Source: Marsupella aquatica
Lineage: Eukaryota > Plantae > Marchantiophyta
Direction: 5' to 3'
DNA: 64,000 nucleotides
NCBI GenBank assembly: GCA_973895155.1
Contig: OZ316892.1
Coordinates: 7,485,251 to 7,549,250, forward strand
The position numbers and the translations under genes are program-made. Below, piece by piece: positions 7,196 through 64,000 of the stretch; position 1 is the first letter of the stretch, and each line of letters starts with the position of its first letter. Under the pieces are notes generated by a model, which searched no databases, had not been told where the DNA came from, and saw only the letters and a program-made list of their open reading frames with translations.

Positions 7196-14369
<7,174 letters not shown>

Positions 14370-32158: not shown

Positions 32159-34709
32159 ATGGCAGGAGCAACAGCAGCTCTAGTAGTTGGAGCATCCGTT
32201 CCTTTGTCATCATTGCCAAGGAGCTATGGTGCAACCACGTCCCTGACACGGGATAGGGGAGTGAGAACTTGCAGCAGCACTCGCTGTAGTAGCAGAAGCG
32301 GCAATGGCAGATATTACGTCGCAGCTCGTTTGGGACAGCGTCCACCAGTAATTTCGCCAATTACATGCTCAGGTGAATGAATTTCCTTCCCAATTGGGTT
32401 ATTTCTCCGCAACGCTGGCTACACGGCGACTTAGTTTGTTGTCGATGTCGTCCCCCTTGGTATGGAATTTCTGGAGGCATTCCCCAGCAGGAGCTCTGAG
32501 ATGGGTTGCTGCTCCCTCAGACGGAATTGCGATATTTGGATGAGATTTTGAAAGGGCTTGAATTCTGTAGGAGGTTTAGAGTTATCTCCCCGAAGTCTCA
32601 TGCTGAAGCCTCGCGTCTACGTGAGTCGATGGGAAGATTCTCGAAGTCTAGGAGATGGCCAAGGTTGAGAAAAGCTAGAGACTTTGGGTTAGTCGGCTGA
32701 TGGAGGAGCTGACAGAACTTCTCACCGATTATGGTGCTCACGTTTTTTAATTCCACTGCTCTCGAACTTGATTGCCACCGGCTCTACTTCGAGTGCAGTT
32801 CTATTTCTGCTCTGCTAGGAGGTGTATTGTTTAATCGTTGAGATCGTAATGGGGTTATTTCTACCAGAGTTACCTGTTTCACTGTTTTTAGGACCTTGCT
32901 CATACTGTTGAAGAAAGTTCTCTAAATTCTGCAGCATACTTGGGCTGTAAGAATTTACTCTCGCTCTGACCATCTCGTTCCCGAAATTCGTTTGCTTTGG
33001 TTTCCGTTTTATAGCAGTGATTTTTTGTTGGAACTAATCAATATTGAGGCGAACGATGCCCATATATTAAGGTCTTACTATATTGTTGTTGGGTAAGGTT
33101 TCTGTAGATTGTGGTTCAAGGAATAGAAATATGCACACTGCAGTGAACGTATCCGTTTACTGGTTTAAAGACCTATGTCCAGCATTTTGAAATGTCTTCA
33201 ATGTAGGGGTTGGTAAGAAAATTTGGTTTAAAGTCATTTGGCCCCCGAACTTCTCGTTTCCCTGAAACCAACTTTCCTGACTTAAAAATTCTGGGAATGA
33301 TTCAAAATTTAGGAGAAAATATTTCAGATGGGTATTTAATAGTGCTCTGGTTAGTCGAAGTCATTCTGGACTGTCCTTCAACGAGCTACCTAAATTCTCA
33401 ATTTCACACACCGTTGTTAATGGAGACTGGTGTGAAGCATTCTGTAAAAATAATTGGCTGAATTTGGACCTCATACACACCGTTTGTATCTGAACGCAGC
33501 TGTGGTGCAGGCCACCGAGACGGTGTTAACTGAGGCACTACCGGGCGAGGTTGAGACTCCTGATCAAGGAGCAGCATGGAAGGGATTCGTAGAGCGTGTA
33601 TCTGGTGAGTGGGATGGGTATGGAGCAGATTTTAATTTCCTTGGTGAGCCATCTGAGTTACCTTCCCAAGTGGTGCCAGATGCGTTCAGGGACTGGGGTG
33701 TTGAAGTTTATGATTGGCAGACCATGTGCCCCACATTAGGGCAAGACGAGCCTGAAATTCTAGGCTACAAGGTGATTAGGTTGCTCCCTACTGTTGGCTG
33801 TGAAGCTGATGCTGCTACCCCCTACTGCATTGAAGACAAGGAATTTGTTACAGCACTTACATATGCTTTCCATGCTAATGGCTCTTACAATGCTGTATGG
33901 CCCGGAAAGGGAGTTGTGAGGAACAATCCAGACCCTGGAAGAACTGGAAAGATTGTGGTTCGGAACACAGATAGTACAAATGAATGGGAGGTTGAGCACT
34001 GTCTTGTGAAGGAAGAAGGATCCAGTAGAAATAGAACGAGGATTCTTCAGCAATTTTGGGTCGACAACACCAAAGTCCCTCAGCTCAAGAATATCACGGT
34101 GTATATTGAGCAATGGGATGGTCCCTTCAGGAACGGGGAATCTCTGGGGGGTTGTTCCACAAGTGGATCTGGATTTGCAACAACGGACATTTTACAGCCT
34201 ACGAGCTTGGCCGGTAGCTGGCGCGCTGACAGCTTCGTTACGAAGGATGGCGAGCCTTCACCAAACCTACTAACGTCCGAGGGATCCAGAGACGTGGAAA
34301 GACCTCAGGCCGAAGAATTTGTTGCTCTTCCAAAAAACTTGTGGTCTTCCGTGAAGGCGTCTGAGGGGGCGGCCTCCTACACTATAGAGGCTGGCTGGCT
34401 GTTGAACCCTGAACAGATAATCGTTTCTAGCATTGAATATCTACCCTCGGGTGACTTCCAGGTGAGATTAGTATACTTTTTATAAGTTGGCCATCAGATT
34501 CCACTGCTTTTGACAGTAGAGGAGAACCGTCATTTCCTGAAATGTGGGCTGAGTCGTCCAACATTCTGTGTAACATCTTTAGATGTTTGGTGCTCTGGAG
34601 GTTTAGGGGGACATCATCTGTAATGATCGCAAAGATTGACAATGTGCTTGTTTATATGCTCTCCGCTGTGTCCCAGGCTTCCAGCATCAGGTTTGAGCAG
34701 AGAAGGTGA
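32159..34709 (+). CDS. Conserved uncharacterised plant protein with predicted plastid transit peptide (3 exons)
   Basis: Exon 1 (32159-32372) is Ser/Arg/Ala-rich (MAGATAALVV..). Exon 2 (33500-34461) contains VSGEWDGYGADF, VVPDAFRDWGVEVYDWQTMCPTL, LLPTVGCEADAAT and EQWDGPFRNGESLGGC. Exon 3 is 34677-34709. Splice phases are consistent. The motifs recall a conserved plant family of unknown function. Confidence 0.85.
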
Positions 34710-44815: not shown

Positions 44816-45650
44816 CTAAGGTATTTCCGCCAGAACATTCCAAACAGCATTGTCAAAATTGTCTTTCAAGAACTGCAATGCCGCCCGTTGGAGACCTGTA
44901 GAGTTAAACTTCCTAGCAATCTTCAACATCTTTACCACGTTCTCGCAGGTCATTGATTTTTTCATAGTCTCCTCGCATATACTTTGGAGGAAAGCAATGT
45001 TATATTTGTGAGCGACTGCAAATACCTCGTCCACAGGGACACTCTCAGTGAACTCAATTTCGGCATCATAACAGAATTTAATCATTGCTTTCATAACGTC
45101 TTGAGAGGCATCATCGATAAAAACTTTCCCTGTCCCCGCTTTTGGCATCTCAGCATCAAGTATGTTACAGAAGACAGATGATCTGCTGGACTGGATGCAT
45201 AAATCGGCAAACAGAAGTCAGCGCGCTCCGCTTTTGTTAAACGTTCACAACGCAGCTTGATATCCTCCATTAGTTGACTTCTGGATGAGCTGTGAAGAGG
45301 TATGTAAAGGACACTCCTAATTTCAAAGGTAATCTACAAATTATAGCAAGCAAGCAAGCCCATGATGTATAAGCTTGCAAAGAAATGTGCCAGGGTCAAT
45401 CACGTACCAGAACAAACTTGTGAGCGAACAAATCCTCATCTTCAACTCTTCTGCCTTTCACTACGATCCTCACGTCACCTTTGAGAATTCCATCCACCGG
45501 CTCGTTATCTACTCGGTTCGTGGAGCGAAGGAACTAAAGCTTCGACCATAGCGTGGTGTTCACTCCAATAAGTCCACAAACAAAACAGAATGGGCTATTC
45601 TCGTCTGATTGCATTTTTGCCTTGCAATTACTACATCCAGTCCAAGGCAT
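44816..45650 (-). pseudogene. BTB/POZ gene copy A (CxxC-CxxC + BTB) with premature stop
   Basis: Exon 1 (45650-45408) reads MPWTGCSNC..FCFVC..WSKL*FLRS..DNEPVDGILKGDV..FAHKFVL. The TAG at 45536-45534 replaces the CAG (Gln) of the paralogs. Exon 2 (45190-44816) is an intact BTB C-terminal half. Confidence 0.85.
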
Positions 45651-45954
45651 TTTGAACCAGGATCTTCAATCGCTAAGTAACGTTCTCCACGGGACGTCAG
45701 AATTTAGCGTTTCCTCGAAGGAGCGAAATACGATAATTCTACTCTCTGGTGTGAATCCTGACGGCCCGTAAGAAAACCTACTTATAACCTTTGGAAGCAA
45801 AAGCAGATAGAAGCAAACGAAGACCTATCGATCGGTATACCGCAGTGTGGCGTTCAGCTTGGAGTCTTTCTAGCCGTTATTGGGTGCCCTTACTGTAAGG
45901 AGAAAATAGATCGACATGTGTTATCAACATGTGAAGAGTCACTCACAATAATAT

Positions 45955-46359
45955 AATTGAGCCCAGATTGGTGAACGTGCAACAAGCTTGAATGTAATTA
46001 CCTCTATTTACATTGAAGAACGGCAGTAAGGGTAGTCAAATGACACTCAGCCCCAATGATCCCTTTAATAAATGATCTCAAGGGCGACCATGCACCCAAT
46101 GTATGGCGTACAACTAAATTTGGAGTTGCGGCTGGAAAATGACAATTGGGGACAAAATGAGTCTCTAAAAATCAGCATGTGAGGAGCCACTCAAAATATG
46201 AAACCAATTGAGCCTGAATTGGTGAACATGCAACAGGCTTGTCTGAATGTACTCACCTCCATTTAAAATTACAGAACGGCAATAAGGCTAGAAAAATGAC
46301 ACTCAGCCCCAATGAACCCCTTAATAAATTATTTCAAGGGGACCATGCACCCAATGTAT
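45955..46359. repeat. ~150 bp direct repeat pair
   Basis: aattgagcc..attggtgaac.tgcaaca...aatgacactcagccccaatga...gaccatgcacccaatgtat starts at 45955 and at 46206. Confidence 0.85.
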
Positions 46360-48128
46360 TCCAACTACGGCCTCAATCAGCAAAGACCAGGAGGGTACAA
46401 ACTCAGCCCCAACCCTTACTTGACAGTTTTCCTAAACAATCCTTAGAATATATTTGGCTTCACACCACCTTAGATTAAAATTGTGTGACCAAGAAAATGA
46501 CCTAATTATATTAATGTCTGTAATAATTATACAAATCCAATTATAACAGAAAACCCAGTGCCTGGAAATTGGGTAACTTACACTAGAGTGAATCAATGGG
46601 TTGGAAATGGCTTATTGCAATTAAACTACTGGGTTCAGCGGGGGTTGGTCAATACCCAGTTATCGTAAGGCTTTCAAGAAGTGCGCTGGAGATGCTTGAG
46701 GTCTCAGATTATTTAGTCTTGAATGATTACACAAAATTCCATTAAGTATAACATCATACATACTTTGACGTTTACAAGGTAATAAGCTCTAGTGATACAT
46801 AGTCATGAAAGTTCAGGTGGGTCATCCAAAATCTGTAGATTGATTCAAAATCTGACATTCCTTCTAGTTAAAATAAATAAATTATTAGCATAGTAGCGGA
46901 TTTAACCATATGTGTGACCAGGCGTCTCGTTTGTGGTTCCACAAAAGTTTTCTAAGGGAAAAACCCAATATGATACAAACTAAGGATTCCATCAAACACC
47001 TAAGTGACAAAATTTCACAGACATTCATTTGACGGTAAAGACTTTTACTGAAAATGGCAAAATAAAAACATCTTAGACCTTACTTTATGTAATAATATCC
47101 TGTTGAAAGGCATTAATGGCAACCCATTTGCAATAAACAGCCCGTCGAACTAGACCTAAATCCCTATTTTGGAGGGGCATCATGGCACATTATGTGGGTG
47201 TTTCTCTACATAACGGGAAAAAGGGTGCAAAACTGCTGGGAAACATGGAAATTGGGGACACCTTTAATTCAGCAGGGTTTGCTCCTATTGGCTGAACAAA
47301 GTTCCATTGAAGTCATGGGGCTCTGAAATTGCCCTAGAACTTATTTTGGGTGATTGTATTGTAGAAAATAATCCAAAAATTATTGTGCACCCTGAAGTTC
47401 AACTTATTGTGACCTCGTGGGTTTGGTCATGGGCCTGGTTGGCTGAACTTGTTCAATATTACGATGGCCCCCAAAAATAGACCTAGAGTGCATTGTCTAA
47501 GCAGATTTCCCACCATATTCTAAAAACCTTAAACTACAAACCATCTTGTTTAGCCTAGAGTGACCACATTGGTTACGGAGGGTGCACTTAAAGCGAACTT
47601 ACTGCACCTTCCTATAACACACGAAGCAGCCCATGTTACTAAGATATGCCATAATCACCCATCTTACTAAGATGCGCCATAATCAGTACTCAAAGCAGCT
47701 GCCTCACTGCCTCAGTCTTTGCACGGAGGCGCATGCAATCTGCGCGCCGCCAGTTTATAAATGCAATTTAGTTGAACGATTCCTTTAATTTTGTCTTGAT
47801 ACCTCTTGGGGCTTGGTGGGTTTCACATAATTGCTTCCAGAATTCTCGCAGCCATTTCTTGCATTTGCAGTCTGTTGAATACTTGAATGGTTGTTTATAA
47901 TTGCCTTCCTCTTTTCCGTAAATTCTGCACTCGAGATTTTGAGATGAAACATAAAGTTCGTCTTGACGGCAAGGTGATTGTATATACCTGAACGGCGGTC
48001 CCGAATTGCCTCACGGAAAACCTTCAACAAAAGCCTTCGGCACCGACGACTTCATCGAATTCTCGCGTCAGAAGAACGTGAAATTCTAGAATTCTGACGA
48101 GTACGCTAACGAATTCCCTGTTCCGAAA

Positions 48129-49144
48129 ATGATGCGGGGAGATCCTATTCGCATATCAAATGTACCGCCCGTTATTAAGCGGGACGATTCGGGGCAATCC
48201 GGGAGAACTTTTGGTGCTTGCAACGAAACCACCACAATCAATGTATCGCCTGGTACGCAGAGAGGGTTGGGGCGAATCGGCCCGGGGATTCCAGTATGTG
48301 CTGCTTGCAACAAAAGCATTACAGATATATTGCCCGGCACGACGAGATCATACTGTGAACCATGCTCACCTCTTCGACAGAGTTCCGAGCTCAAGAAGCT
48401 ACGGAGTGAGCTCGAAATGGTTCAGTCAAAGCTGCAGTTTCTTAGGCCCCAGAAGCAACAAGATAACGAGCCGGTAGATGGAATTTTCAAAGGAGACGTG
48501 AGGATAGTGGTACAAGGCCGAAGCCGTGAGCCTTTGTATGCTCACAAGTTTGTTCTGGTGCGTGATCGATCCTGGCGCTCCATTTGTTTGCAAGTTTATG
48601 CATGTGCTTGTATGGTTATTGCGTTTTCAGTCTAGGAGTTTCGTCCTGAAGAATAGCTGTGCACAGCATACCGAAACCTCACATTTTGGAGGATTCCAAT
48701 CAAGGTGAGTCGAGGAAGTTGGACTAGGCCACAACTCACTCGTTTGCGAAAAATATGCAGTGCAGGAGATCATCTGTCTTCCGTAAGATATTCACAACAT
48801 CTTTGTGCACACTGAATCTGGAGGAGCCGGGGACAATTTGTATCTATGATGCCTCTTTGGAAGCCATGCAAGCAGTGATTAAATTCTGCTACAATGCCGA
48901 AGTAGACTTCACCGACGAAGTCACTGTTGAAGAGATAGTGGGAGTCGCGCGAAAGTATGATATTGAGCTCCTCCAAAAAATATGTGAAGAGAATATGATG
49001 GCAACAATAAGCTGCGAGAACCTGTCAAAGAGGTTAATGGCCGCTAAGAAGTTTGAACTGACAGGTCTCGAAGCGGCGGCATCACAGTTCTTCAAGGACC
49101 ATTTCGACGAGGCTTTTAAGAATGTTCTGGCAGAAATATTCTAG
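48129..49144 (+). CDS. BTB/POZ-domain protein copy B (N-terminal CxxC..CxxC, coiled coil, BTB), 2 exons
   Basis: Exon 1 (48129-48557) contains CAAC..CEPC, LKKLRSELEMVQSKLQFL, GDVRIVV and YAHKFVL. Exon 2 (48761-49144) reads CRRSSVFRK..GTICIYDAS..FCYNAE..KYDIELLQKICE. The architecture matches the plant At4g08455-type BTB family. Confidence 0.88.
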
Positions 49145-50304
49145 AAGCCTCGGTCTGGACCAAGTAAAACGAGATCGTCGGATCTTCTCAGTAAGAATTC
49201 AGTTCTGGGTGGCTGGCAATTAGACCGGATATATGCAGTATTTTGAATAGTTTTAATGAACTTTTAGCTATTTGCATTCAGGTTTTGCACAGATAGAGGA
49301 TCACTTCTGTCTAGTGGCACCTATCAAAAGACGCCCAACTTTCGGCTAGTTCTGGGCTTTGTATCAACATTCGCTGTGGATAATATGGTTTCATCAATCT
49401 CATAGGCAAGCTCTCTGGCCTCCTTTGCAATCCTACACTGACCGTGAACTCTGGATGTCTAGTCGTGCTTATCTCTAAAGCCTCCCATTTTCCCCTTCGA
49501 ATGAGATCAATTAGAGCACGCGCAAACACTGTCCACCTTTCGACAGGCCAGCGAACTGTCTCCCAGCTACACTACGTACACTTATGAACTTGGATAATTT
49601 TGGACAGGTTAGAATGAAACCTTAGCATTTGGCAGGACGAGCACACATATAGAAGAAGGTTGGTATGTCCAGGCTCCAACCCATTTCTGACTTGAAGGCA
49701 TTTAAAGTGTCGGAACTCAGAAAGACCTCAGAAGCTGTCGGCCTGTAACCTCTTTGCTTGATAAGGAAAAAACTGGCTGCTGGTGCAATGTCCCCTTTGA
49801 GTGCTTGGTGAGAGCATTTACTGTCAATTCCTCCGTCTTCTTCACATTGATGAGCACAGGTAACTGAGTAAATAAGTTGCTCGAGCTTTTGAGTAGAGCT
49901 GCCAGCGTACTATCGATGCAGGCCCCACCGCCCAGCAGCAGTGTCCACAAAATGTCCGTCCACACTAGAGCTGCAGCCGGAGGCTAGACTACTAACTGCT
50001 AGCCGTACGTAGTATGGCAACCCTGCTGTCTCATAATTAGGCCTTGAGCCACGGACTCGAATGAAACATCCCCCGATCCCCGCAATTTTTTTAGTGCAGT
50101 TCGCAGGTTTCGGTCCGACTTTGAGATCCTTGCGGTCGAGTCAAAAAGAGTAGTTGCCACGGATGCAAATGAAACATCGCCGCAGTTTTTAGAGTGCAGT
50201 TTGCAGGTTTTGATCCGACATTTGAGATCGTTGCGGTCCAGCCAAAAAGGATAGTTGTGAAAGCATATTTGTCTTAAAGTAGTTTTGTCTGTTGTGCTTT
50301 ACCC

Positions 50305-53300
50305 TCCTTACTATAAAAGGGGTCTCCGTAACTGCACATCAAAATATGGAATATATGGTATACAACATCCTTGCATACCTTGATAACCCTAGTTTTTTTC
50401 TTTTAATCAATGAATGCATCACATTTTGATGTGTGATTACCAGGGAACCCTAGGTTTTTTTCTTTTAATCAATGAATGCAGCCACATTTTGATCTGTGAT
50501 TACAAGGGAAAGGATGCGGGGTCCTTACTTGCTCTCTACACTGATTACCAGGTCCTTACTTGCTCTCCTACACTGATTACCGTAATTAGTGTCACACACA
50601 ATACTTAGGAACAAAGGTTTTTGAAGTATATCACCATGATTTATGAGTGTGAGATTATATAAAAAAATACACTGATTACCTTAATTACTGTCACACACAA
50701 TATTTAGGAACAAAGGTTTTTGAAGGATATCACCATAATTTGTGAGAGTGAGATTATACAAGAAATGAGAGTAAATACATGTCCTTCTAAATTAAAGTAA
50801 GTGAAATTATTTCTGGTGATAGGTTTATAGTGTGCATTGAACTCTGAATTAATGAATGAGAGTAAATACATGCCATTCTAAATTAAAGTAAGCAAAATTA
50901 TTTCCAGTACCACGCAAACAGTGTGTGATGAACTCTGAATTAATGTGTGTAATTTATGAAAAATATAAATTTTTCCACTCATAACAAAGATGTATTTGCA
51001 ATGGGCATATAAAATTAATAAATGAATGTCAATTGATGTAAAGTATTTTTTAAATTATTTTTTTGGGAAATTTACCAAACCTCATAGAAAGTGAAGAATC
51101 AATCACAATAGTTGAACCCAAGACCTGTCAATCTCTATTCAAGTGAGTTATCACAAAGTCATGTCTCTCAGGGCAGAAATGTCAATTTAAATTCAGACTT
51201 CATTAAAGTATGATAAAACTAAGTATTAATGCAATCAAAATCAAACTAAAATAAATTATGTATAATAAACTAAATTCATTGCTTGTACTATTGCAATCAG
51301 AGTCTAAGTTAAATTCATTTCCAAATCCAGATTCATCATCTTATGATCTGGAATTGTTATTTTCAGTCTCAGAATTCATAGGGGTTTTTTTATAGTCTCA
51401 TTTTTTATTAATCTATAGGAGACTAATAAGGAACCTACTTTTTATATTCTTTTGAGATTTGATGTCACACCTGTATTAGTGTGTGTGAGATTATTTAAGT
51501 AAGGAGACTAAATAAGTTATGATACTAAGTAGGATAAACAATGTAGTCGATGCTCCATCCTCTGAGCTTTTAAGAATTCAAACTACAGATTGTCTCACCT
51601 CAGTTACCAATTTGAACTATTGGCTCTAGACTGGCTAACTTGGCTGTCCGTAACTCTTGCTTGTAAGTGACTTTACATCAAGAACTATAATACAAGGTTG
51701 CGTCTTTTTATGCAGTGGTCGTCATTCAAAAATACAGTGCCAAGAAAAGAAGTAACCAATAAACAGAAGGGATAAAACCAAAAGCAAATTAAATATAGTG
51801 TGAACCAAAAAGTACAGGAAATCTTTTCACCCAGTAATCAATTGGTGGACACAAAAAACAAAAAATGTAACTAACCCTGTTGCATGCACTTTTCAAAAAG
51901 AATCTAATGGTGGGAACAAAACACAAAAAAGTACCTAACCCAATTGTATGCAAGAGTATCATAAGTGATATACCATATCCTCTAAAAATGGATACGGTAT
52001 TATTTACAAACTCAAGAAAAAATGGGAACAATCCTAGGTCTTAAGTAAAAATTTGTTTTTGTGTAAATGTAGGATCCATCCATATCTCTATTAATCTGGA
52101 TTACCTCTGCCCAAGCTACCCATAACCTACCCAAACCCAACTAAAATAAAAAAATTGGAATATTATTGAAAACTAATTATTCAAATTGAGGCTTAAAGAA
52201 TTCGATAATAACTTTAAAGTTTTGAAAAAACTTGAGTATTAATAATGTATATATATGATATTAATTTCTCTAAAATTTTATAATATAATAAAAAATATTT
52301 TTTTCTATCACTTGGTTGTGCTTAGACTCTATGTTGCGGTGACTATTATCTCAGCCTCCAATTTCTATGTGCAGTGCACGAGTTGTTGCACACCACCACA
52401 ACAACTCTACCTTGCCTTGACATATTTTTTCATCTCGCCATTTTTTATGACATTGACATTTTTATCTCATGACAATGTTTTCTCACCCTCAACATCGTTT
52501 AGGTCCTTGATATATTTTCTCACCTTGACATCATTATCTCACCACAACATCTTTCCCTCACCTTCGACATATGTTCTCTCCTCAACGTCATTTCTCACCT
52601 CGCCATGTTTTTTCTCTCCTCAACATCACCTTGACTTCTTTGTCTCACCTCAACATCTCTTTTTGTCATAGTGACATTTGTTTTCACCTCAAAATCTGAC
52701 CTATTTCTCAACTTCACATTTTTATCTCACCACAACATCTTTCCCTCACCCTCAACATCTTTTCCTCATCTTCACATATTTTTCTCACATCGCCATCTTT
52801 TCTCTCCTTGACATAGTTTTTGCTCTACTTCTTTTCCTAGCTCAACATCTCTTTTTCTCATCAACATCTTTGTTCACCTCGACATCTTTTTCTCACCTCC
52901 ACTTCTTTTTCTCACTTCAACTTCTTTTTCTTACCACAACATCTATTTTCACCTCAACATATTTTTCTCACCACACCATCTTTTGTGCAACTTTTGTCTT
53001 AACAACATCTTTTTTACTTAGTGACAACTTTTCTCTTAACGACACCTTGGGCAACGTGATATTTCTTTTCTTAAGGACATATTGGGTGCCACAACATCTT
53101 GGGTGACACAATATCATTTTTCTTGAGTACATCTTGGGTGTCACAACATTTTTGTTCTCAACAACATCTTGGGTGACACGATATCTTTTTTCTTCATTAA
53201 TGACACATTGGGTGACACAACATTTTTTTTGTTCATGACATCTTCAGTTGGGCGACACTACATTTTCTTTCTTAACGACATCTTGGGCGACATCACATCT

Positions 53301-53452
53301 TTTTTTCTTAACGGCATCTTGGGCGGCAGAACATATTTGTTCTTAACGACATCTTGGGCGACACAACATCTTTTTGTCTTAACGACATCTTAGAGGACAT
53401 GACATTTTGGGCGACACGACATCTTTTGTGCAACATACGGGTATTGAGCTAG
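50305..53452 (+). mobile_element. Probable non-autonomous Helitron (AT-rich, serial internal duplications)
   Basis: The 3' end ttttgtgcaacatacgggtattgagCTAG|T resembles a transition-decayed Helitron hairpin followed by CTAG. A possible 5' end is TCcttactataaaag at ~50305. The interior has successive tandem duplications (50385-50945) and acaacatct repeats (52400-53430). Confidence 0.5.
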
Positions 53453-53562
53453 TGCTTCTATAATAGTCTGTAACTAAAGTTTTGAGACTCCTTATTGTAG
53501 TTTCCTGGTTAGAGGAAAACTTAAGAATAGGATGTATTCAGAGAAATGTGCAAATCCTGTGT

Positions 53563-53691
53563 GACACAAAAGTGTATATCCATTTCAAACAGTACCCAAC
53601 AATCCATACACATTGAACGGGTAAGCCACAAAAGTGTATACCCATTTCAAACAGTACCCTACAATCTATACACATTGAACGGGTACGCCAC
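53563..53691. repeat. ~61 bp tandem duplication
   Basis: cacaaaagtgtata.ccatttcaaacagtaccc.acaatc.atacacattgaacgggta.gccac occurs twice. Confidence 0.9.
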
Positions 53692-54329
53692 GGACTTATG
53701 GACCTAGGAGCGTTCAGAGACCTGGAGGCCCAGGGTTTCCCCTGCGGCAGGGCCGCATGGTGGGAAAGGGGACGACAGGGACGAGCGTCCCTATTGCAAT
53801 ACGGACAAGGGCGCAGGGTCCCTAGCAAAAGACGAGGCTCACTAGGGAGTGACACCTGCCGGAGTTTAAACTTTAAGATGAGTGTAAGCACGGTTCTAAT
53901 GGGACATTAATTGGCATAGATATTGCCAATCGAAGTGAATCTCCGCAAGAGCATTTGCTGTCAAGTCCCCCATCTTCTTAGTTAATTAACATTGATGAGT
54001 ACAGGTAACTCAGGGTGGCTTTACAAGACGTTCACGCTAGAGCTGCAGCCGGAGGCTAGACTACCAATTGCTAGCCGCAGGAATGACACACCCTGCTGTG
54101 TCATAATTAGGCCTCTAGTGTTGGAATGGAGCCAAGGACGCGAATGAAATATCGCCGCCGTATTAAGGATCCACCACAATTAAGGATAAGACCTGAGTGA
54201 GGATCCCAAATGACTGACCAAACCTGCGATCAAAGCAATAGGTTTTCCTACAGTTGTGCCAACGGGAGAAGAAACGTGAGATTCGGACTTCCCGTGGAGA
54301 GCACTGCTAAGCAGACACCCTGTTTCAAA

Positions 54330-55233
54330 ATGTCGTGGTCGACGACTCGATCTCAATGTCTTGGTTGCAGACAAGGATTTGAACACAGACCCACCCATAC
54401 AATTATATCATTTTGTCCTGAATGCTCACTTACTCAACTGGACGCGAAGGATGCTGAGATCAAGAGGTTACGGTCTGACCTCGGGATGGTACAGTCGAGG
54501 CTACAGTTTCTTTGCCCTCAGAAGGAACTTCACAACGAGTTGGTGCATGGTATTCTCAAGAGTGATGTGATGATCATCGTCCAAGGCAAAAGAGATGAGT
54601 CTTTGGTCGCTCACAAGTTTGTTCTGGTGCGTGATCCTGGCGCCCCATTGCTTTGCAAGTTTACTTGTATATTGTAGCAACCTTTGACATTAAGCGTGTA
54701 GCTGCGGTACGTAGCTAAAAGTTTGCATCTCTTTAAAATAGCTTTTGTCACAGCTTAGCAAAAATTGGTGTGGAGGATCGATGCCAATCAAGGAGACCTG
54801 AGGACGCATGTGTTGTGTGTCGTGACTTCTGTTTGCCGAAACGTGCATGCAGTCAACCAGATCATCTGTCTTCTGTAAGATGTTCGACGCCAATATGCTG
54901 GAAGGGGAGACAGGGACAGTTCTCATCGATGATGCCTCTCATGACGTTGTCAAATCAGTTATTAAATTTTGCTATGATGCCGAAATTGACTTCATTTCAG
55001 ACGGTATTAGTGCGGAAGAAGTACTAGAAGTCGCTCACAAATATGACATTGGTCTCCTCCAAAAAAGATGTGAGCAGGAAATGAGTACAACAATAAGCTG
55101 CGAGAACCTGCCAAAGATGTTTAAGATCGCCAAGAAGTTTGGGTTGAGAGATCTCGAGCGGGCCGCATCGCAGTTCTTGAAAGATCATTATGACACTGAT
55201 ATTGCGAGTGTTCTGACGGAAATACTTCCATAG
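54330..55233 (+). CDS. BTB/POZ-domain protein copy C, 2 exons
   Basis: Exon 1 (54330-54626) reads MSWSTTRSQCLGC..FCPEC..LRSDLGMVQSRLQFL..VAHKFVL. Exon 2 (54853-55233) reads STRSSVFCKMFDANMLEGETGTVLIDDAS... The start was chosen by leader homology with copy A (ttcaaaATG); an in-frame upstream ATG also exists at 54210. Confidence 0.88.
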
Positions 55234-55932
55234 CGCGAAAGTAGTCTTTCCTTACCAGGAATTCAGTTTTGGTCATTTGTAGTCATACCGGATAAAATAT
55301 TTGTAGCTCAGTTATCAATCTCCATCAAGCTCCTGTATGTCGGTGCTTTGGATTCCCCTAAGAGAAAGGAAGGGAAAGTCGGTGATTTTATCTGGATAGG
55401 TCGTAGGTATCCTTGTCCTGTATATCATCCCCTGGCTTGGTCCATACCTGTTTTGGAATCGAACATGCTCCAACGTGACACGACTCGAGAGTTCACCTTT
55501 AGCGATGATACTTAGAGTAGCACACAGTCCCATTGAGAAAATGAAGGGCATGTACAAGCGCAGACATCAGCCACCTTGGTTACATCCAACTTTGCGATGT
55601 GTCACTTAAGATATGTGGACGTTTTCCTACAATTCGTATTCCAGTGTTTATCCATGTATCTTGGGGACGGCTATAATTGTATCTCACTGTCAGCGTCTCT
55701 AATTAAGTTAGCGGAATCGTTTCTGACGGAATGAATGAGTGGTTGTGACTTCTGAATTGAATGGTTCCTCGAATCACTTAGTCAATTTAAGTCGACTCTG
55801 CTTGCACACTCCTGCGAGGAGTGCAGTGCAGTGCAGTGTAAAAGAGAAGTGCTTTTGGAAAAAATCAGTGAGTTTTGATTTTCTTAGAGCCTTTTTTTTC
55901 CCCGTACTGAATAAAATCAGCTTTCCTTTTCC

Positions 55933-56507
55933 ATGAGCAACTCCGCTACAAAGATATGGCCCGGTATGCCTGGATCACTTTGTGAACGATGCTCATATAT
56001 GTATCAGAGTTTAAAACTCAAGGATTTACAGTGTGAGCTCGAGATGGTTCAGTCGAGGCTACAGTTTCTTCGGCCCCAGAAACAACTAGATAACGAGCCG
56101 GTAGATGGAATTCTCAAAAGGCGACGGGAGGATAGTAGTACGAGGCAGAAGCCGTGAGCCTTTGTTCGCTCACAAGTTTATTCTGGTGCGTGGTCGATCC
56201 TGGCGCTCCATTTCTTTGCAATTTTGTGCATCGGCTTGGTTATTGTGTTTGTAGTAGTATGTTTGAAACCGCGTGGCTAGGTGTTTCCATTTATTAAGAA
56301 TAGCTCTGCACAGTACACTGCAAGCCCACACAGTGGAGTATTCCTATCAATGTGAGTTGAGTAAGTAGTACCAGGCTTCAACTGACTCGTTTGGCTGAGT
56401 CCTGACATGTGTTTGCGAAATATATGCAGTCCAGAAGATCATCTGTCTTCTGTAAGATGTTCAGCACATCTTTGTGCGAACTGAATCAGGAGGAGCTGGG
56501 GACAGCG
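55933..56507 (+). pseudogene. BTB/POZ copy D, frameshifted and truncated paralog of copy B
   Basis: ELEMVQSRLQFLRPQKQLDNEPVDGILK is followed by a +1 frameshift at ~56116, after which GDGRIVVRGRSREPLFAHKFIL resumes. The intron is homologous to that of copy B. Exon 2 starts at 56430 (SRRSSVFCKMFSTSLCELNQEELGT) and homology ends at ~56507. Confidence 0.88.
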
Positions 56508-58680
56508 CCTATGGATTTCTAGTTGCAAGTTTGTGGATGAGTCGCTGATGAGAAGTTTGGCAAGAGTGGTAGAGGGAAAACAGGTCAGAAAAAGTGGTAC
56601 CATAGAGAAAACGCGATGCTTCGTGAATGCGTCATGATCAACAAACCTCGAAAAATTGGAGACGGGTCACTCGACGTCCTCAAAACTGTTAGTTCGAATC
56701 GAATCGAACCAATTTGGTTGGCAGATCGTCGGCGAGAAATTTGAGACTCCCAGTCGGCACTTGAAGTGAAACGGCATGGAACATATGTGAGGAAGATCAG
56801 GCGTTCTGAACTAGAGGAGATTCGAAGCACGACCGGGATGATACCGTAGCAAGGCAAGGTCGGCAGTGTATTGAGATATGTGTTCCAAATCTCAGGTTAT
56901 GCATGCATCTCAAGGTATGGCTTTCGTGAAAGCGTCGCTAAATTGTGTAGAGATATCTTTTCGCTCTAACGCCCATCCCACCAGATAAACTCATTGGAAC
57001 ATGGGACCTCGAAATACTTTTTTAGTGTGGAATTTGCAACCTGTCGCAACAATATTTTCACATGACAATGGTCAACTCAGATCCTTAAGAGTAAACGAAA
57101 TTAATTCTCAAAACAGTAGTCGAGGATTGTCTGCTTCTCAGTCTGCTTATCTGGGATAGGACTGTCCTTCCTACTGTTTCTGAAGTATCGATGAATCGCA
57201 TGGCTCGTGGGTTTTATGCAAAAAATCCCCACTTGAATGGCAATCGTAATATCATACAGGTTTTTCAGTGTTAAGCTCACCGTTAGGTACTTCCAATCTT
57301 TGTGTTCAAACAAGGAGTCCCAATTCACTAGTACATATTTGCCAATTTTGCGAAGGCGTTTTACAAGAGGAAGAAAGCTTTGCAAGATTAATCTCATCGC
57401 TAACCTTGCGATATGATATGCATCGCACTTAGCGAATCTACACACATCGCAACACATAATTGCGAAACTTAGACCATCGCAACATTTTACGACACTTCAG
57501 GTATCGCAAAACATTTCCGAAGCAATTACCATTGAACAAGTTAGCGATCTTTATCGCTTCGCAAATTCATTGAGATGCGCCGGAAAACTAAATGGTTGCG
57601 AATATTTAAGCATCTCAAAATATTTTGCGAGTCTTATTGTCTCGCAAATGAGCGATGTTTGTGGAATATATGGCTAACTTGCGATAGTAATAGGCTCGCA
57701 AATCCTGTGCCTGTCTAGGGTCTCATTTTGTGAATGTTTTGGTTTCGCAACTTTGAGATGGTGGTATCTTCGGAAGTTTGCGATGAGGGGATGATGGCAA
57801 TTAGGGAGCAGTTAAGTATCGCAAATGTAGCGATGAGTTTGCGGGTGTAGGGGTTTCGCAAGATGTTTCGCAAAATATTATGAGCGCTTCAAAGAGGTGG
57901 AAAAGGAATGGGATTGGGGAGGGAGGGTAAAGGAAGGTGGATACATGTAATTTTTAGGGAGGGACAATGAAAAGGAGGAGGAAGGGAATGGGGCTAGGAG
58001 GGACAAGGAACGGAGGGATCCAAGAGGGAGGATACAGGTTTAGGGGGCACAAGGAAATGAGGGAGGAGGAAGGGTATGTAGATATAGTTTTAGGGAGGGT
58101 TTGGATTTAGGGAGTGAAAATAAAAAGGAGGGAGTTTAGGGTTTAGAGAGGGACAAGGAAAGGAGGGAGGGTATTGGTTTAGAGAGGGACAAGGAAATGA
58201 GGGAGGTTTAAGGATATAGGTTTAGGAGGGAGGAGAGAAGCTAGGTTGTATAGGTGAGAGTGGGGGACAGGGGTGGAAAGTAAGGAAAGTATAGGGTTGA
58301 AATAGAAAGCCAGGGGTTGGGACAAGGAGAGGAAGGAGGAAGGAGGGTTTAATAAGAGGGACAGACAATGAAAGAAAGGAGGAGGGAGGTGGGTACAAGT
58401 AATAAGGAGAACAGCTAGGGGGGGATTAGGAAAGCATGGAGGATAGAGGACTACAAGCAACATGAGTTTTCTTTGCATAAAGTCTACCAAAAGGTGTGGT
58501 GAGTGTGGGGTAGGGATGGGAGATATAGAAAACAACATTTGAAAATGATATACTTACAAAATATAAGTTTATTGATAATTGAGAAGCGCATATTTCTCCA
58601 TTCTACCGAGAAGAGAAATCTTCATATCATCAAATCTAACTATATATCCGTGTAGCTATATATCCACAAACACAGACCCC

Positions 58681-61600
58681 TCAAACTTGGTCCTCATCAT
58701 CTTCAGGTTGGGACACAACCAGAATATCAGGCTTTTCCCCAATGATTGAACGAGACCGTGGCACATATGTGATGACAAGTGACCATTCCTCTGGGTTTGG
58801 GGGGTATGGAATATAGAAACATTGTTCCACATGACTTGGAAAAGTGAACGGCTCTGATGTTTGCCAATGAGATGGCTGGAAACTAGTGGCAGACGTCTTC
58901 AGTCGTGTAAATCCACACTCATCTTGAACCACAGTAGGATTGTTACCTGCAAGGTTCACTTTGAACCACTTGCACTTGAAGACATACTCTTCAAACTTTG
59001 ATTGTGCATCATAAGATATCACTAGAATCTCTTCTACCTTTCCATAATGTGGCACAACATCTCGAATAATATTTGTGTCATGGCGACTGCTGCGGGAATC
59101 TTGAGAGAATTGTCCTTGAACTCCACAATCAAAGGTACGACCCCTCTTCTCATCAAGGGAAGAAATCCTAAAATCCATCAAACCATAAGGATATGTTACA
59201 CAAAAATGGACACAAACATATTTCAATTAATTGAACACACCAAGAATCTGCCTCTTCAATATACGTGCTTGTATTACAAATGAATTAAATTAAACCAAGT
59301 GATTCAAATCAAAGGTTACTAAGGTAGATGGAGATCACCTGAAATGTCTTCCTTGTGTCCACATTGTTGTCCTTGTTGTAACCACTCTCAAGGGACCATG
59401 AACAATGGTACGAACATCATCTGTGATAGCCGGAAAATGTAATACACTCTCTCCCCTGACCACCATGTCATCCACCTCAACTAACTTCTCCTTGGTCTTG
59501 TGCTGTTACTTTTGGCATCCTCATAGAAATCCCTCCATTCTTCCATGATAGTGCTGTTACTCAACATGAATGTGGTCAGTTGTTTCACCTCCACTGGTGT
59601 CAACATGCGAGTTTTCCTAGCACCTGTTAAACGATCCTCTTCATCTTCCCTCTCCTCTACCCAAGTACGGGGAGAGGTACAATCAATTGTGGCCAATATG
59701 TTACTACAATAGAACATACTCTCAGCTGCTAAGTATCCTGTAGCCATGCTTCCCTCAACCCGTGCACGGTTACGTACATAACCTTTTAACACTGCCATGT
59801 ATCGTTCTAGCCAATACATCCACCGACAATGCACAGGACCTGCAATGGCCACCTCATGAACAAGATGAACAAGTAAATGCACTTGACAGTCAAAAAAGGA
59901 AGGAGGAAGGGCCTTCTCCAACTTGCATACCACCTCTGCTGCCAAAACCTCCATCCCAGGGATCTCATCAGTATATATCTCCTTAGAGCATACCCATCTC
60001 AATAGTTTTCCCAATGACCAAAGGGCATCTTGCACTTCTTCACTTGCCAAACCTATTATGGCCACAGGCAATATGTGCTGCAATAACCTATGGTAGTCAT
60101 GTGTCTTGAGATACCTTGGCCACTTATGATTGTCCTCCATCCCAAAGGCCTTTCGGAGATTGGCACCATAACCAGTAGGAAACTGCATGTCTCCTATGCG
60201 ATTCTGAAACTCCCTTCTCTGGCCAATAGGAAGCACCCATGGAGCTGAAGGTCGATGCTCGATCCCTGTGATAGGATCACTTATGACCCACACGTCTGGA
60301 TGCATCTCAAGATCCTCACAAGCCTCCCTGAAGTTAGTGTCTTTCTCTCCATAGAAAGCCTTTATCAAAGCCTTTCCCACATTTCCCTCAATGTGCATGG
60401 GGTCTAATAGATGGCGGATCTTCAACTCACCCCAATAGGGCAAAGTGGTTAATATACTCCACCTTGTCAAGCCACTACCGTCAAATTGCATGGGATCCTC
60501 TGGGTCTGTCACTCTTGCAGCCATGTCTTTCCAGTGTGTAAAAGTTGTTGGCTCAGGTACATCACGCTGGTCACCAAAGGGCATATCAATAGAGGAAAAT
60601 AGTAGTGGGTCATGCCTCATCTGATGTCCCATTGAAAGAAACTTTGTATGCCCAAGATAAACAATCTTGCGAAGATGTGATGAATACTTGGCTACATCAC
60701 CAAGGCTTGGGCCACAAGTGGAGCAAGCCTTGTAGCCTTGGGTTTGCAACCCACTCACAAAGCCAAATCCTGGTCATATAAACACACATTATGTTAGGAT
60801 TAGCACATGGAAATGAGGGGATACCATGCATTAGAATATGATGCATTTAAACAACAAAGTTCTTACCTGGGTAGTCATGCATGGTCCACATACAAACCCC
60901 TTTGAGTTTGAAAACCCGTGGGGTACCCCCTGTAGTCTTTCAACCATCATATGCCCATACTCCTTCCCATAATTTCTGGAGTTCCTGAACCAGTAATGTC
61001 AAATAGGTGTCCATGTTCTTCACCTTCTTTGGCCCTGGGATAATCAAAGATAGCAACAAAAAACCCTTTTTCATGGACAACCATGGTGGAAGGTTGTAAT
61101 TCATGAGAACCACAGGCCAGACCGATGTAGGTCTCCCCTTCCCTCCAAGTGAATGAGGGCTAACTCCATCTGATGCCAACCCCAGTCGCACATGCCGAGG
61201 GTCACGCTCAAAATCTGGCCATGTTGATTCCACATGTTTATGAGCAGGAGAGTCAACTGGTAATCGCATGACACTGGGCTCCGAACGATGTTTCTTGTGC
61301 CATACCATCAACTCGGCCAAGTCAGAACATCTATACATGTGCAACAAGCGAGGAATTATGGGGAACCAACGAACTGCTTTCCTTGGTACCTTCTGGGTTA
61401 GCATGTTTGGCTCATACCGTGGCTCATGACACACTGTGCATTCTGTGATATGGGCTGTATCCCCGTGAAATAACATGCAATCATTCACACAGGCATGAAT
61501 AATATGGTAATCCATACCAATGGATGAGAGAACCTTCTTTGCATCCTTCCAGGTCCCTGGCAACACATTCTCCGAGGGTAACATCAAGTCATGACAATAT

Positions 61601-62016
61601 TCAAATATGTCTGATAACATAGAATTGCTTGTCTTGTGTTTGGCTTGAATGTTCAAGAGCACCAATATGGCAGAAAGACAGCTCAACCGAGCACCCTCAA
61701 AAATAGGTGTTCGAGCATGTTCCTCTGCCTCTTTCCATTGTTGTTGTCCCTCTGGAGTATGTTGTGGCCGTGGGTCATTTGAAGGGCCAACCTCATGACC
61801 AATGTGAGGCACATCATCCTCAACATCGGCACCAAACCAATCAACCATGAAGTCATCCATGGCTCTATCTTGATCATGCATGACCTGGTCATCAGTCCGA
61901 GGTGCGGCTTCTTCATCAGCACCACCTACATCATTACTTGATGAGGAATCACCCAAAACCTCCTCATGTATATTTGACCAAGTACAACAAATTAAAATAG
62001 ACTTAACACCATTCAT
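58681..62016 (-). pseudogene. CACTA Tnp2/TnpD transposase (Transposase_21 + DUF4218 + DUF4216 regions)
   Basis: Motifs: IHACVNDCMLF..CTVCHEPRY, WFPIIPRL, RLGLASDG, SVWPVVLMNYNLPPW, WTMHDYP|GFG..GYKACSTC, HLLDPMHIEGNV, LKTHDYH, PPSFFDCQVHLLVHL, GPVHCRWMYWLERYM, WFKV..DECGF..EPF. Lesions are an in-frame TGA at 60942-60940 and a frameshift near 59490. Confidence 0.93.
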
Positions 62017-62146: not shown

Positions 62147-62951
62147 CTAATCCCACTCATAGTGTGTGAATAACTCATCTCCTGCTCTAATGGTCCTAGT
62201 GATATGTCGTGCCATATGGTGCCGGCATTGGACCATCAGTAAAAACCCACTCACAATTGGCCCTACACTTGGGCCGAGTCCCCACAGTACTATTTATGAA
62301 ACCAGCAATATTCCCATTACGTATGGGATCACCATCTATCACCCGCTACTCACTATACCTTCTAGTGCTACCATCAAAAGTATCCATCTCTAGAGCATAT
62401 ATTTTCCACTCAGGATGTTGTGCAAGGATCATGTTCCAATGTCTTCTCTTGTAGATGGGTCCACCGTATGGGAACAAAGTAGGACCCTCTCTACCACGAA
62501 CACTTGACCCACCCTCCTCATCCATGATGATATCCTCACAAGCAAATACTCCATATCCATGTCTCTCTCCAAGTGTGGAAGTTTTCACAATCCAACGTCT
62601 ACCCCAAACCACAATCTCCTCATCAAAATCTGTAAAATAAGGCAAGCCAAGAGTGATAGGTTCCCAATCCTTGATGATAGAGGCACACTTGCCAGTGAAT
62701 GAACAAACACCCCACCTACCCTGAACTAGTGTTCTGGATGGGTCATTGGGTGCTCGTGGCCTCCTGTTGGATTGGGGCCTGGACCGGGGTCTTCGTGTCT
62801 CAGTGGGCACATGAGGGTGTTCCCCTTTTGTCCCATGACTGGTACTAATTCCCAAACCCAAGGCTTGTGAAAGTGCATTGCCTATAGCATCTAAAACTCC
62901 TTGTGATGGGACATAGGGTGGTGGTGTCACTAATCTACGCATATTGGATCC
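62147..62951 (-). pseudogene. SET-domain coding region inside the CACTA element (premature stop + frameshift in this copy)
   Basis: Translation: WIVKTSTLGERHGYGVFACEDI...LFPYGG..IYALEM...SE*RVIDGDPIRNGNIAGFINS..RANCEW..[frameshift ~62200]..TRTIRAGDELFTHYEWD*. The SET motifs (GxGVFA, ID..GNxAxFIN, IxAGxELxxxY) occur in the canonical order. Confidence 0.8.
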
Positions 62952-63062
62952 CTATTCCATGCAAACACCCACAAACAACCAAATGTGTAAACCATATGTG
63001 TAAACATTGATTCACCTCTAAAAATAACAGTAAAGAACGGCAATCAATTGAAACAAACTTAC

Positions 63063-63287
63063 CATATGGGATGAAGAAGCCCCGGGAGTAAGACCTCTAT
63101 GATGTCCATATCTCTCAATATGTTGAGCACACACATAAGATTTTTGAGAAATTTGGCCCACACATTTGGTGCAGTCACAAAGTCTTCGGGGTGGACCACG
63201 AGGACCAGTAACCTCGGGCTGAGGAGGAGGGGGTATATCGTCATCGAAGGAGTACTCACTACTGGATAGTTCAGAGGAAGAGGACAT
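63063..63287 (-). CDS. CACTA first coding exon with transposase-associated Cys/His (CxC..C...H) domain
   Basis: MSSSSELSSSE..RRLCDCTKCVGQISQKSYVCAQHIERYGHH..SSHM is followed by a phase-0 donor GTAAGT at 63062. It resembles the N-terminal transposase-associated domain of En/Spm TnpD. Confidence 0.65.
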
Positions 63288-63875
63288 ATCCACTGCCACA
63301 TTACATTGCATGTAGGGCATGATTAGGAAAAATTAGGCCATATATAAAGCGATTTTAAAAAAAATGAACTCAAAAAACAATTAGGTTGGTTTATACATGG
63401 GGTTTTATTACCCTTTTATATTTGTTAGCATGAAACCCAAATTAAGGTGAGTGTCATGCAAGAAGAAACCACATTATAACCTTTGGGAAAATTGTAATAC
63501 CCTATGTCCTAAGTGAGGTTAGATTATTACCTGAATGAGACCCGGGCTCAACAGTGCCTATAGGTCACGTGGCTTTTGGAACATTTGCCAAATCTAGAAG
63601 TAGGAGGAAAATACTGGAAACAAAATGTAAGTTTGGATGGTAATTAGCAGCCGTCAAGTTGTGGAATCTTAGACATTTACCCACATATATCATGGCACAA
63701 CAAAGAAGGGCAAGCATAAAAATCTGTACTAACAACATTGACTGTATACATGATGTTATACCTTTTAGATGCCCGGGTTCCCACAATGCATATGCATTAG
63801 ACAAAAGTTGAGGTAGTAGTGTTGGCCCTGCGTTGTATCATGATTACATGGGTTTTCCCCTCAATTGTTAGCATA

Positions 63876-63897: not shown

Positions 63898-64000
63898 ATC
63901 CCCCCTCAAGTGAAAGGTGAGTGTCATGCAATAAAAACCCACCCTAGACCCCTGGGAAAACTCTAAAGGCCTAAGCCCAGAATGAAGTTGGACAATAATT

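Follow-up and report, generated by a model that had tools for sequence, protein, structure and literature searches.

The 64,000-nucleotide stretch of Marsupella aquatica DNA analyzed here, referred to as the window, contains part of a CACTA transposon in which a SET domain appears to be encoded beside the transposase. An earlier note on this DNA had proposed that the element carries a SET gene of its own, with which it might write or read chromatin marks. The locus raises the questions of whether the SET region belongs to a family of elements or was captured once by a single copy, and of what a transposon might gain from it.

Layout of the CACTA element and its SET exon

The element lies on the minus strand, running from beyond position 64000, with its 5′ end outside the window, to a CACTA terminus at 57326. 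Here and below, L-numbers denote metagenome loci, P-numbers denote homologous proteins or gene models, and X1, X3, X5, and X6 are public runs, used as contigs. The right (3′) terminus (57326 to 57353, minus strand) ends in ...TGTACTAGTG and holds the sole CACTAGTACA of the window, at 57326. Locus L022 has a similar end, and the summed contig depth jumps at 57326/57327 in three of the four runs. An unstranded subterminal array of TCGCAA/TTGCGA motifs occupies positions 57326 to 57900, with 17 motifs in the last 575 nt, or 29.6 per kb versus 0.35 per kb in positions 1 to 57325; the 5′ end of L006 has 13 such motifs as well. Among the relatives, CACTA stands at the start of the shared stretch at three distinct sites with distinct flanks (L006, L013, which equals L034, and L036). 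Termini of the form CACTA...TAGTG are a criterion for CACTA/EnSpm elements as given in PMC4158355, and the element in the window has the CACTA 3′ end at 57326 together with a Tnp2-type DDE transposase (PF02992, PF13960, and PF13952).

Three minus-strand exons are predicted to encode the transposase. The first Tnp2 exon (60867 to 62001; PF02992, E = 1.9e-33) follows a putative phase-0 acceptor AG at 62003-62002, the middle exon (59339 to 60769) contains the C-terminal part of Tnp2 and DUF4218 (PF02992, E = 1.2e-7; PF13960, E = 3.7e-34), and the last exon (58681 to 59167), whose splice site was placed by reading the sequence, contains DUF4216 (PF13952, E = 3.4e-8). The motifs ASDG, HDYP, and LERY are present in the element, and we take them to be the catalytic motifs of the Tnp2-type DDE transposase. 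The window copy has a premature TGA at 60942-60940 in the first Tnp2 exon, where CGA accounts for most of the contig depth in X1 and X5 and for 56% in X3, and its middle exon lacks about 31 nt near 59500 in comparison with L001. Beyond the transposase lies a 3′ noncoding region with pyrimidine-rich 36-nt repeats (57900 to 58680, minus strand), and no second gene (ORF2/TnpA) was found from the end of the transposase to the right terminus of the window copy. Since one X1 contig (depth 506) spans 57981 to 58777 with 5 differences, this noncoding layout is that of the family. The Sphagnum-like transposase has an intron of about 150 nt (L001, 2628 to 2777) that is cleanly missing at window position 60172, and its absence from the window's family is in line with the intron loss reported for CACTA transposases in PMC4158355. 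Locus L022 (2387 to 2449) is an internally deleted derivative in which a cut transposase is joined to the 3′ end and the SET exon survives, lacking a stop.

The SET exon (62147 to 62951, minus strand) lies between a Cys/His exon, exon 1, and the Tnp2 exons, all on the same strand. The earlier note had this order right; its description of the upstream exon as transposase-associated found no profile support, as exon 1 matched no Pfam family, the transposase-associated one included, and had no usable ESM Atlas match. The likeness to the transposase-associated domain lies in the CxCxxC...H motif, and a motif resembling that of exon 1 is also found in Riccia families. The SET exon begins with an amphipathic-looking helix and an Arg/Pro linker (62951-62727), continues through a pre-SET hairpin region (62726-62595), and ends with the SET domain (62594-62150) and a stop (62149-62147), all on the minus strand. 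The SET motifs that had been named were all located, in order on that strand: HGYGVFA (62561-62541), YALE (62399-62388), IDGDP (62339-62325), GNIAGFINS (62315-62289), ANCEW (62261-62247), and, after a change of frame, TRTIRAGDELFTHYEWD with its stop (62200-62147).

Two breaks interrupt the domain in this copy. A premature TAG at 62346 to 62348 (minus strand) had been explained as a CAG-to-TAG change, and other contigs of the family support this: CAG makes up all of the contig depth at 62348 in X1, X3, and X5 (6, 6, and 5 contigs) and about half in X6. The frameshift suspected near 62200 is present and can be refined to a 26-nt deletion between 62201 and 62200 (minus strand), by comparison with other contigs and homologs, which shifts the frame and removes a strand of the SET core. 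The loss amounts to about 8 codons, whose residues are present in homologs, and the missing 26 nt are held by loose ends at 62200 in three X1 contigs and four X5 contigs. Among the best-supported contig variants, where the window's own variant does not figure, both breaks are confined to the window copy. With its SET exon and its transposase both broken, the window holds a dead copy of a family that has better-preserved members.

Coding exon 1 (63063 to 63287, minus strand) has 75 codons, with a Ser/acidic start followed by a CxCxxC...H...H motif that is a possible zinc finger. A phase-0 GT-AG intron (62952 to 63062, minus strand) joins it to the SET exon, with the donor and the acceptor AG each kept in 8 of 8 sequences, and the same join appears in gene models P0001, P0002, and P0104. 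A stop directly after the final Tyr is found in all nine aligned sequences (the window, L003, and Sphagnum-like loci). On the transposase side, the window and seven Sphagnum-like loci share an aligned AG that is in phase with Tnp2, and in the window this acceptor is a weak AAG. Because an in-frame ATG lies near the acceptor in both lineages, Tnp2 may also start on its own. None of the joints listed for the contigs of the four runs corresponds to the predicted introns, which speaks neither for nor against splicing. The conserved phase-0 splice sites point to a single unit whose product is transposase or SET protein, with exon 1 likely common to both. What had been called the element's own gene is indeed a stable part of a CACTA clade, and it is more aptly described as an exon that probably has exon 1 in common with the transposase.

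Two AG-GT-flanked segments beyond exon 1 are conserved far above the surrounding introns across three lineages, despite frame-breaking indels. One, of 83 nt (63531 to 63613, minus strand), is kept in the window, L003, L006, and L036 with 1-nt indels; the other (63762 to 63827, minus strand) is kept in the window, L003, and L036 and is missing in L006. Both are likely conserved 5′ untranslated exons with a regulatory role. A candidate G-box at about 63570 was rejected, being not conserved in the loci checked. In Sphagnum-like elements, a head-to-head gene lies upstream of exon 1 (L030, 1477-485, minus strand; L006, 8811-7015, minus strand), and its first exon is an intact 331-codon open reading frame in L030. 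The gene had no Pfam or PDB match. It has a helical stretch that we assume to resemble TnpA-type DNA-binding domains, and it may encode a DNA-binding partner or the true TnpA equivalent. Given this gene, the idea that SET replaces TnpA was set aside.

Relatives, copies, and selection

A protein search found 45 relatives among 340 candidates, the named ones belonging to Sphagnum and Calypogeia fissa, and several of these are annotated as exon 1 plus the SET exon; one cluster of relatives has 360 members. A profile search added families from Riccia sorocarpa at 30 to 46% identity, with the Cys motif kept or with a run-on into Tnp2 sequence. When the full library was searched, 183 proteins were found at E values up to 0.001, and 129 of the best 150 of these 183 were new. 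Looking up 20 distant proteins yielded names from two liverwort genera, Riccia and Calypogeia, as well as from the fern Adiantum nelumboides and from Ginkgo biloba. P0345 (Ginkgo), P0360, P0368 (Adiantum), P0297, and P0307 (Calypogeia) are distant SET proteins with the Asn-Ser pair described below (NS type) and other N termini, P0297 having Cys/His repeats, and they may be members of other elements or domesticated. In the ESM Atlas, the second-nearest cluster by features consists of 207-amino-acid SET proteins, mostly from Basidiomycota (score 0.96).

The SET exon is closely linked to the remainder of the element. Tnp2 lies downstream of it in 18 of the 21 related metagenome loci that extend far enough on that side (500 nt or more), and exon 1 lies upstream in all 17 loci that extend 300 nt or more on the other. 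In the three loci without Tnp2, two of which are one site, the SET exon is cut by other sequence. The 36 metagenome loci are not independent: 35 were treated as one Sphagnum-like family (in five loci checked, 131 to 149 of 154 residues were identical to P0001), and some are the identical insertion. Linkage is also seen in gene models at 30 to 48% identity, where SET runs into PF02992 (P0279, P0295, and P0301) or Tnp2-like sequence (P0081 and P0082). In X1, possibly a run from the same source as the window, the junction contig has a depth of 17.7 versus 332 to 611 for near-identical element contigs, which gives roughly 20 to 35 close copies, depth being a poor copy count. A 3,992-nt contig in X3 follows the flank to 57326, then departs from the window sequence, and reads as an empty site. 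Stops occur inside the SET core or just before its end in 8 of the 24 loci covering the core, and more occur in the linker. On the strength of these comparisons, the SET exon is family cargo and not a one-off capture. A Pack-type capture, with a single copy, a near-identical host gene, and neutral change, does not describe it, and the objection that the region might occur only in this copy fails, as it is multicopy and found across species.

Between lineages, the SET domain changes at well below the neutral rate. Its dN/dS was 0.14 to 0.24, with upper bounds of at most 0.40, for the window against 13 loci (12 Sphagnum-like loci and L003), these being nonindependent pairs; the values from window-to-locus comparisons were 0.42 to 0.52 for the linker and 0.13 to 0.18 for the transposase where at least 130 codons align. 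Single-step changes, a count that skips multihit codons and runs low, stood at N:S ratios of 4:23 on the window branch, 8:14 on the L003 branch, and 8:10 on the branch of the Sphagnum-like majority. These codon comparisons show purifying selection on SET between lineages, on all three branches tested, and the neutral dN/dS that the earlier note would have counted against its proposal was not found between lineages.

Within the Sphagnum-like loci, SET is near neutral, with a dN/dS of 0.89 versus about 0.5 for Tnp2. Shared variants in the 14 Sphagnum-like loci holding both regions were 41 N and 12 S in SET versus 38 and 26 in Tnp2 (Fisher p = 0.048); without C>T and G>A changes, they were 7 and 1 versus 4 and 5 (p = 0.13). 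The near-neutral pattern is partly due to dead-copy decay and to recurrent C>T/G>A changes. A trans-acting product would be under weaker per-copy selection than the transposase. A dS of about 0.55 in the SET core, against 0.9 to 1.3 in Tnp2, had suggested that the two modules were swapped, an idea that was dropped because four-fold sites differ little (0.36 to 0.42 versus 0.37 to 0.56).

The element and its host differ in their distances from mosses. A host open reading frame (33454 to 34482) is 81 to 82% identical to its counterpart in Calypogeia fissa, 63 to 65% in Marchantia and Riccia, and 41% in the moss Ceratodon, values that by themselves point to a leafy liverwort as the likely host. 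The SET domain of the element is 82% identical to Sphagnum P0001 (122 of 149 residues), its transposase is 75 to 83% identical to that of L001, and four-fold sites between the window and the Sphagnum-like element are unsaturated (0.36 to 0.56). The Riccia families are 41 to 50% identical to both the window and the Sphagnum SET, and a tree of 34 rows places the window together with Calypogeia and Sphagnum on one 100/99 branch without Riccia. Because the element is close to Sphagnum while the host reading frame is far from moss, there is a hint, based on one host gene, that the element moved horizontally between mosses and liverworts; old paralogous families are a possible alternative explanation.

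Fold and active site

The SET piece of the window alone scored below the Pfam cutoff (PF00856, E = 0.074; 13.9 bits versus 22.4). Of its homologs, 24 of 25 matched PF00856 (best E = 7.5e-8), and P0010 reached 29.3 bits against the cutoff of 22.4. An AF2 model of P0010 made with a 35-row alignment had a pLDDT of 88.7; AF2 on the shallow 25-row alignment A2 gave a pLDDT of 42.3 and was not used. Searches of the PDB by single sequence and by alignment A2 found no SET, and the best PDB profile match had an E value of 0.014, so the family is without a close solved relative. With the P0010 model, all listed Foldseek matches in the PDB were SET enzymes (best E = 1.9e-7), and viral SET proteins scored alike. 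The best VIA match had a Z score of 12.0 and an rmsd of 2.7 over 124 aligned residues. As the top VIA Z scores are tied (12.0, 11.6, 11.6, 11.5, and 11.3, with Set1, SET8, EZH2, and SET7/9 within one Z unit, at 12.0 to 11.1), neither subfamily nor target lysine can be assigned from them. Residues 1 to 24 of the model barely aligned to any listed chain, and none of these chains resembles it in the long SET-I insert and the N-terminal hairpin. The Pfam matches and the P0010 model show that the exon encodes a predicted SET fold, which disposes of the possibility, allowed for in the earlier note, that no fold match would be found.

Active-site positions were read in a 35-row alignment (A3) and in 130 domain rows of 129 distant proteins from among the 150 best of 183. 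GxG, the SAM-binding motif of SET lysine methyltransferases, is kept in 34/35 and 33/35 rows of A3 and in 76/82 and 79/83 distant rows. The final, catalytic Tyr is present in all 30 nongap rows of A3 and in 69 of 69 distant rows, and its position is supported by alignment to the C termini of EZH2 and MLL1. Distant rows keep the E of ELxxxY (74/74) and the second Asn (95/97). By sequence alignment, the first lysine-binding Tyr of SET methyltransferases (YxG) is Tyr in 32 of 35 A3 rows, and in 88 distant rows it is Tyr in 58 and Phe in 28. At the Phe/Tyr switch, where a small residue permits di- or trimethylation, at least 70 of 71 distant rows have a small or aliphatic residue.

The catalytic Tyr of ELxxxY is given as a SET methyltransferase feature in PMC4919437, and H/RxxNHxC is given as the canonical SET motif in PMC4146578. 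The latter is absent from this SET family, in which its His and Cys are missing. At the NH position, 99 scored distant rows have Asn in 92, Ser in 94, and His in none, and A3 has Ser in 33 of 35 rows. The replacement of NH by NS with the terminal Tyr kept, first noticed in the window copy, is a family-wide trait that, in these alignments, defines a SET lineage without the NH motif. With no canonical NH-type SET among the 99 rows, no host donor is in sight. The close family stops 2 to 3 residues after the catalytic Tyr and has no post-SET lid to close the SAM pocket; past the Tyr, tails are longer in some distant members.

Possible roles and known systems

We see about an even chance that the SET exon, likely spliced to exon 1, encodes a protein-lysine methyltransferase that marks histones at the element's own copies and helps their expression. 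One transcript would have two spliced forms, exon 1-SET (about 345 amino acids, with its stop right after the catalytic Tyr) or exon 1-Tnp2, the transposase. The SET protein would bind SAM and methylate a lysine, to which, given its small switch residue, it could add two or three methyl groups. Recruitment to the element would depend on the shared Cys/His exon or on an element-encoded partner, and the mark placed there would oppose silencing, as TnpA does in flowering-plant Spm elements. Several observations count against a histone methyltransferase: the missing His and Cys of NHxC, the absent post-SET lid, the near-neutral SET within Sphagnum-like loci, Phe in place of the first Tyr in 28 of 88 rows, the weak Tnp2 acceptor with a nearby ATG, the head-to-head gene, and the lack of an evident DNA-binding domain in the SET protein. 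We propose only tentatively, and with more doubt than belief, a broader history in which an old and hitherto undescribed NS-type SET lineage of land-plant CACTA elements has a working histone methyltransferase spliced onto the transposase's zinc-finger exon, gives its own copies a mark that activates them or blocks PRC2, takes the anti-silencing place that TnpA has in flowering plants, and has passed horizontally from one to the other of peat mosses and leafy liverworts, with relatives in ferns and Ginkgo.

An active enzyme could instead methylate a nonhistone protein, such as the transposase, the second protein, or a host silencing factor, and so tune transposition after translation. SET7/9 (Z = 11.3) and SET8 (Z = 11.6) tie with Set1 and EZH2 so that no histone site is singled out, the unusual SET-I insert and hairpin fit such a target, and a common exon 1 could put the SET protein and the transposase in one complex. 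Nearly all listed structural neighbors, however, are histone methyltransferases, and chromatin is the target of other transposon cargo as described in PMC12730594, and we regard a nonhistone target as unlikely. The absence of the NHxC His and Cys and of the post-SET region would also suit a SET domain of little or no catalytic power that serves as a reader or shield of a histone tail, either tethering the transposase to a chromatin state, and so choosing target sites, or blocking a host methyltransferase, PRC2 for example. PR domains lacking these features can fail to bind AdoHcy (PMC4146578), and H3K27me3 is reported on a large share of Marchantia transposons (bioRxiv 10.1101/2022.10.24.513474). 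A protein of this kind is quite unlikely in our estimate, since the catalytic Tyr (69/69), GxG, Asn, and Glu are kept across families at 40 to 50% identity or less, and since activity is described for some PR domains without NHxC (PMC4146578; PMC4919437).

Gene models that run from SET into Tnp2 in Riccia (P0081, P0082, P0279, P0295, and P0301) and in Sphagnum (P0009) would be expected if SET were spliced in frame into the transposase to make a SETMAR-like fusion protein. This is very improbable, as all nine aligned sequences have a stop directly behind the final Tyr, and the predicted joins vary in position and often interrupt the domain, a pattern expected where gene callers bridge broken copies. 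SETMAR/Metnase is a domesticated, single-copy, in-frame fusion of SET and a mariner transposase; SET also stands beside a transposase in the window family, but there the exon is closed by a conserved stop and travels with the element. Finally, the domain might be a captured host fragment, passively carried and of no current use to the element. The near-neutral change within the Sphagnum-like family and the stops in or near the end of the SET core (8 of 24 loci, with more in the linker) agree with passive carriage, but neutral drift is expected among dead copies anyway, and purifying selection on three branches and the linkage to Tnp2 at 30 to 48% identity speak against it. Passive capture is largely refuted, and we give it hardly any weight.

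The preferred reading, a histone methyltransferase carried by the element, has partial precedents. SET cargo was described in HarbingerS and MuDR families of Phytophthora (Repbase Reports 2014, cited in PMC12730594) and in Helentrons (PMC4067079), where the Helentron SET is given as 50% similar to Clr4. According to these sources, they are likewise DNA transposons with an accessory open reading frame resembling a SET histone methyltransferase; unlike the window element, they belong to other superfamilies and to oomycete hosts. Plavaka elements of red algae, in the EnSpm/CACTA superfamily, have a SET accessory gene, PAG2 (bioRxiv 10.1101/2025.02.11.637652). PAG2 is similar in that SET (PF00856) is long-term cargo of a CACTA-superfamily transposon with a proposed role in histone methylation. 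By description, PAG2 is a gene apart, in which SET is linked to an N6-adenine DNA methylase, and it sits in a cassette of three genes within elements of 17 to 19 kb, whereas the window family has a lone NS-type SET in a Tnp2 (PF02992) land-plant element and likely shares exon 1. No methylase family was found in the SET homologs scanned (20 and 32). Our literature search, which lay outside Repbase, subscription journals, and supplements, found no report of SET cargo in land-plant CACTA elements.

Other systems resemble the proposed role more than the protein. Arabidopsis Spm3 is reported to produce TnpD and TnpA from alternatively spliced transcripts, with TnpA causing a loss of CG methylation in its family, and proteins resembling TnpA seem to be confined to flowering plants (bioRxiv 10.64898/2026.08.24.746577; PMC13547354). 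The En/Spm elements, maize Spm and Spm3, share with the window family a transposase and a likely accessory regulator from one unit and subterminal motif arrays, but their TnpA is described as a helix-turn-helix DNA-binding factor with an anti-silencing role and without a catalytic SET domain. VANDAL elements also encode a factor, VANC, against silencing of their own family (cited in PMC12730594); these elements belong to the MuDR superfamily, and VANC is described as a sequence-specific DNA-binding protein, not a SET fold. Among host enzymes, SET8, Set1/MLL, EZH2, SET7/9, and PR domains are similar in structure (Z = 10 to 12; rmsd, 2.4 to 3.1 over about 120 to 135 residues) and keep GxG, Asn, and ELxxxY. 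The window family differs from them in sequence (15 to 24% identity, 29% at most), in having NS for NH and an extra N-terminal hairpin, and in lacking a post-SET region in the close family.

SET cargo is already known for oomycete and red-algal transposons, where, as described, its activity is only proposed. New here are the liverwort host, a young multicopy family, the hint of horizontal transfer, and the fern and Ginkgo relatives. Sequenced Sphagnum and Calypogeia genomes contain intact copies, and the 204-residue domain can be modeled with confidence. Since the hosts are related to Marchantia and Physcomitrium, in which transposon histone marks have been mapped and transgenics are routine, the question of whether transposons write their own histone marks can now be put to a direct test in a land plant. 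Annotation of many copies as "SET domain-containing proteins" of the host will inflate bryophyte chromatin gene counts.

Elsewhere in the window, minus-strand exons at 8679 to 10438 presumably belong to an MCM helicase gene, and others at 20119 to 22475 (minus strand) resemble what we take to be a xanthine/uracil permease gene. Four related small BTB-domain genes or pseudogenes, one of them inverted, are clustered at 44816 to 56500, adjoining the insertion, and a degenerate tandem repeat with a strong strand skew (GC skew, -0.50) lies at 52250 to 53400.
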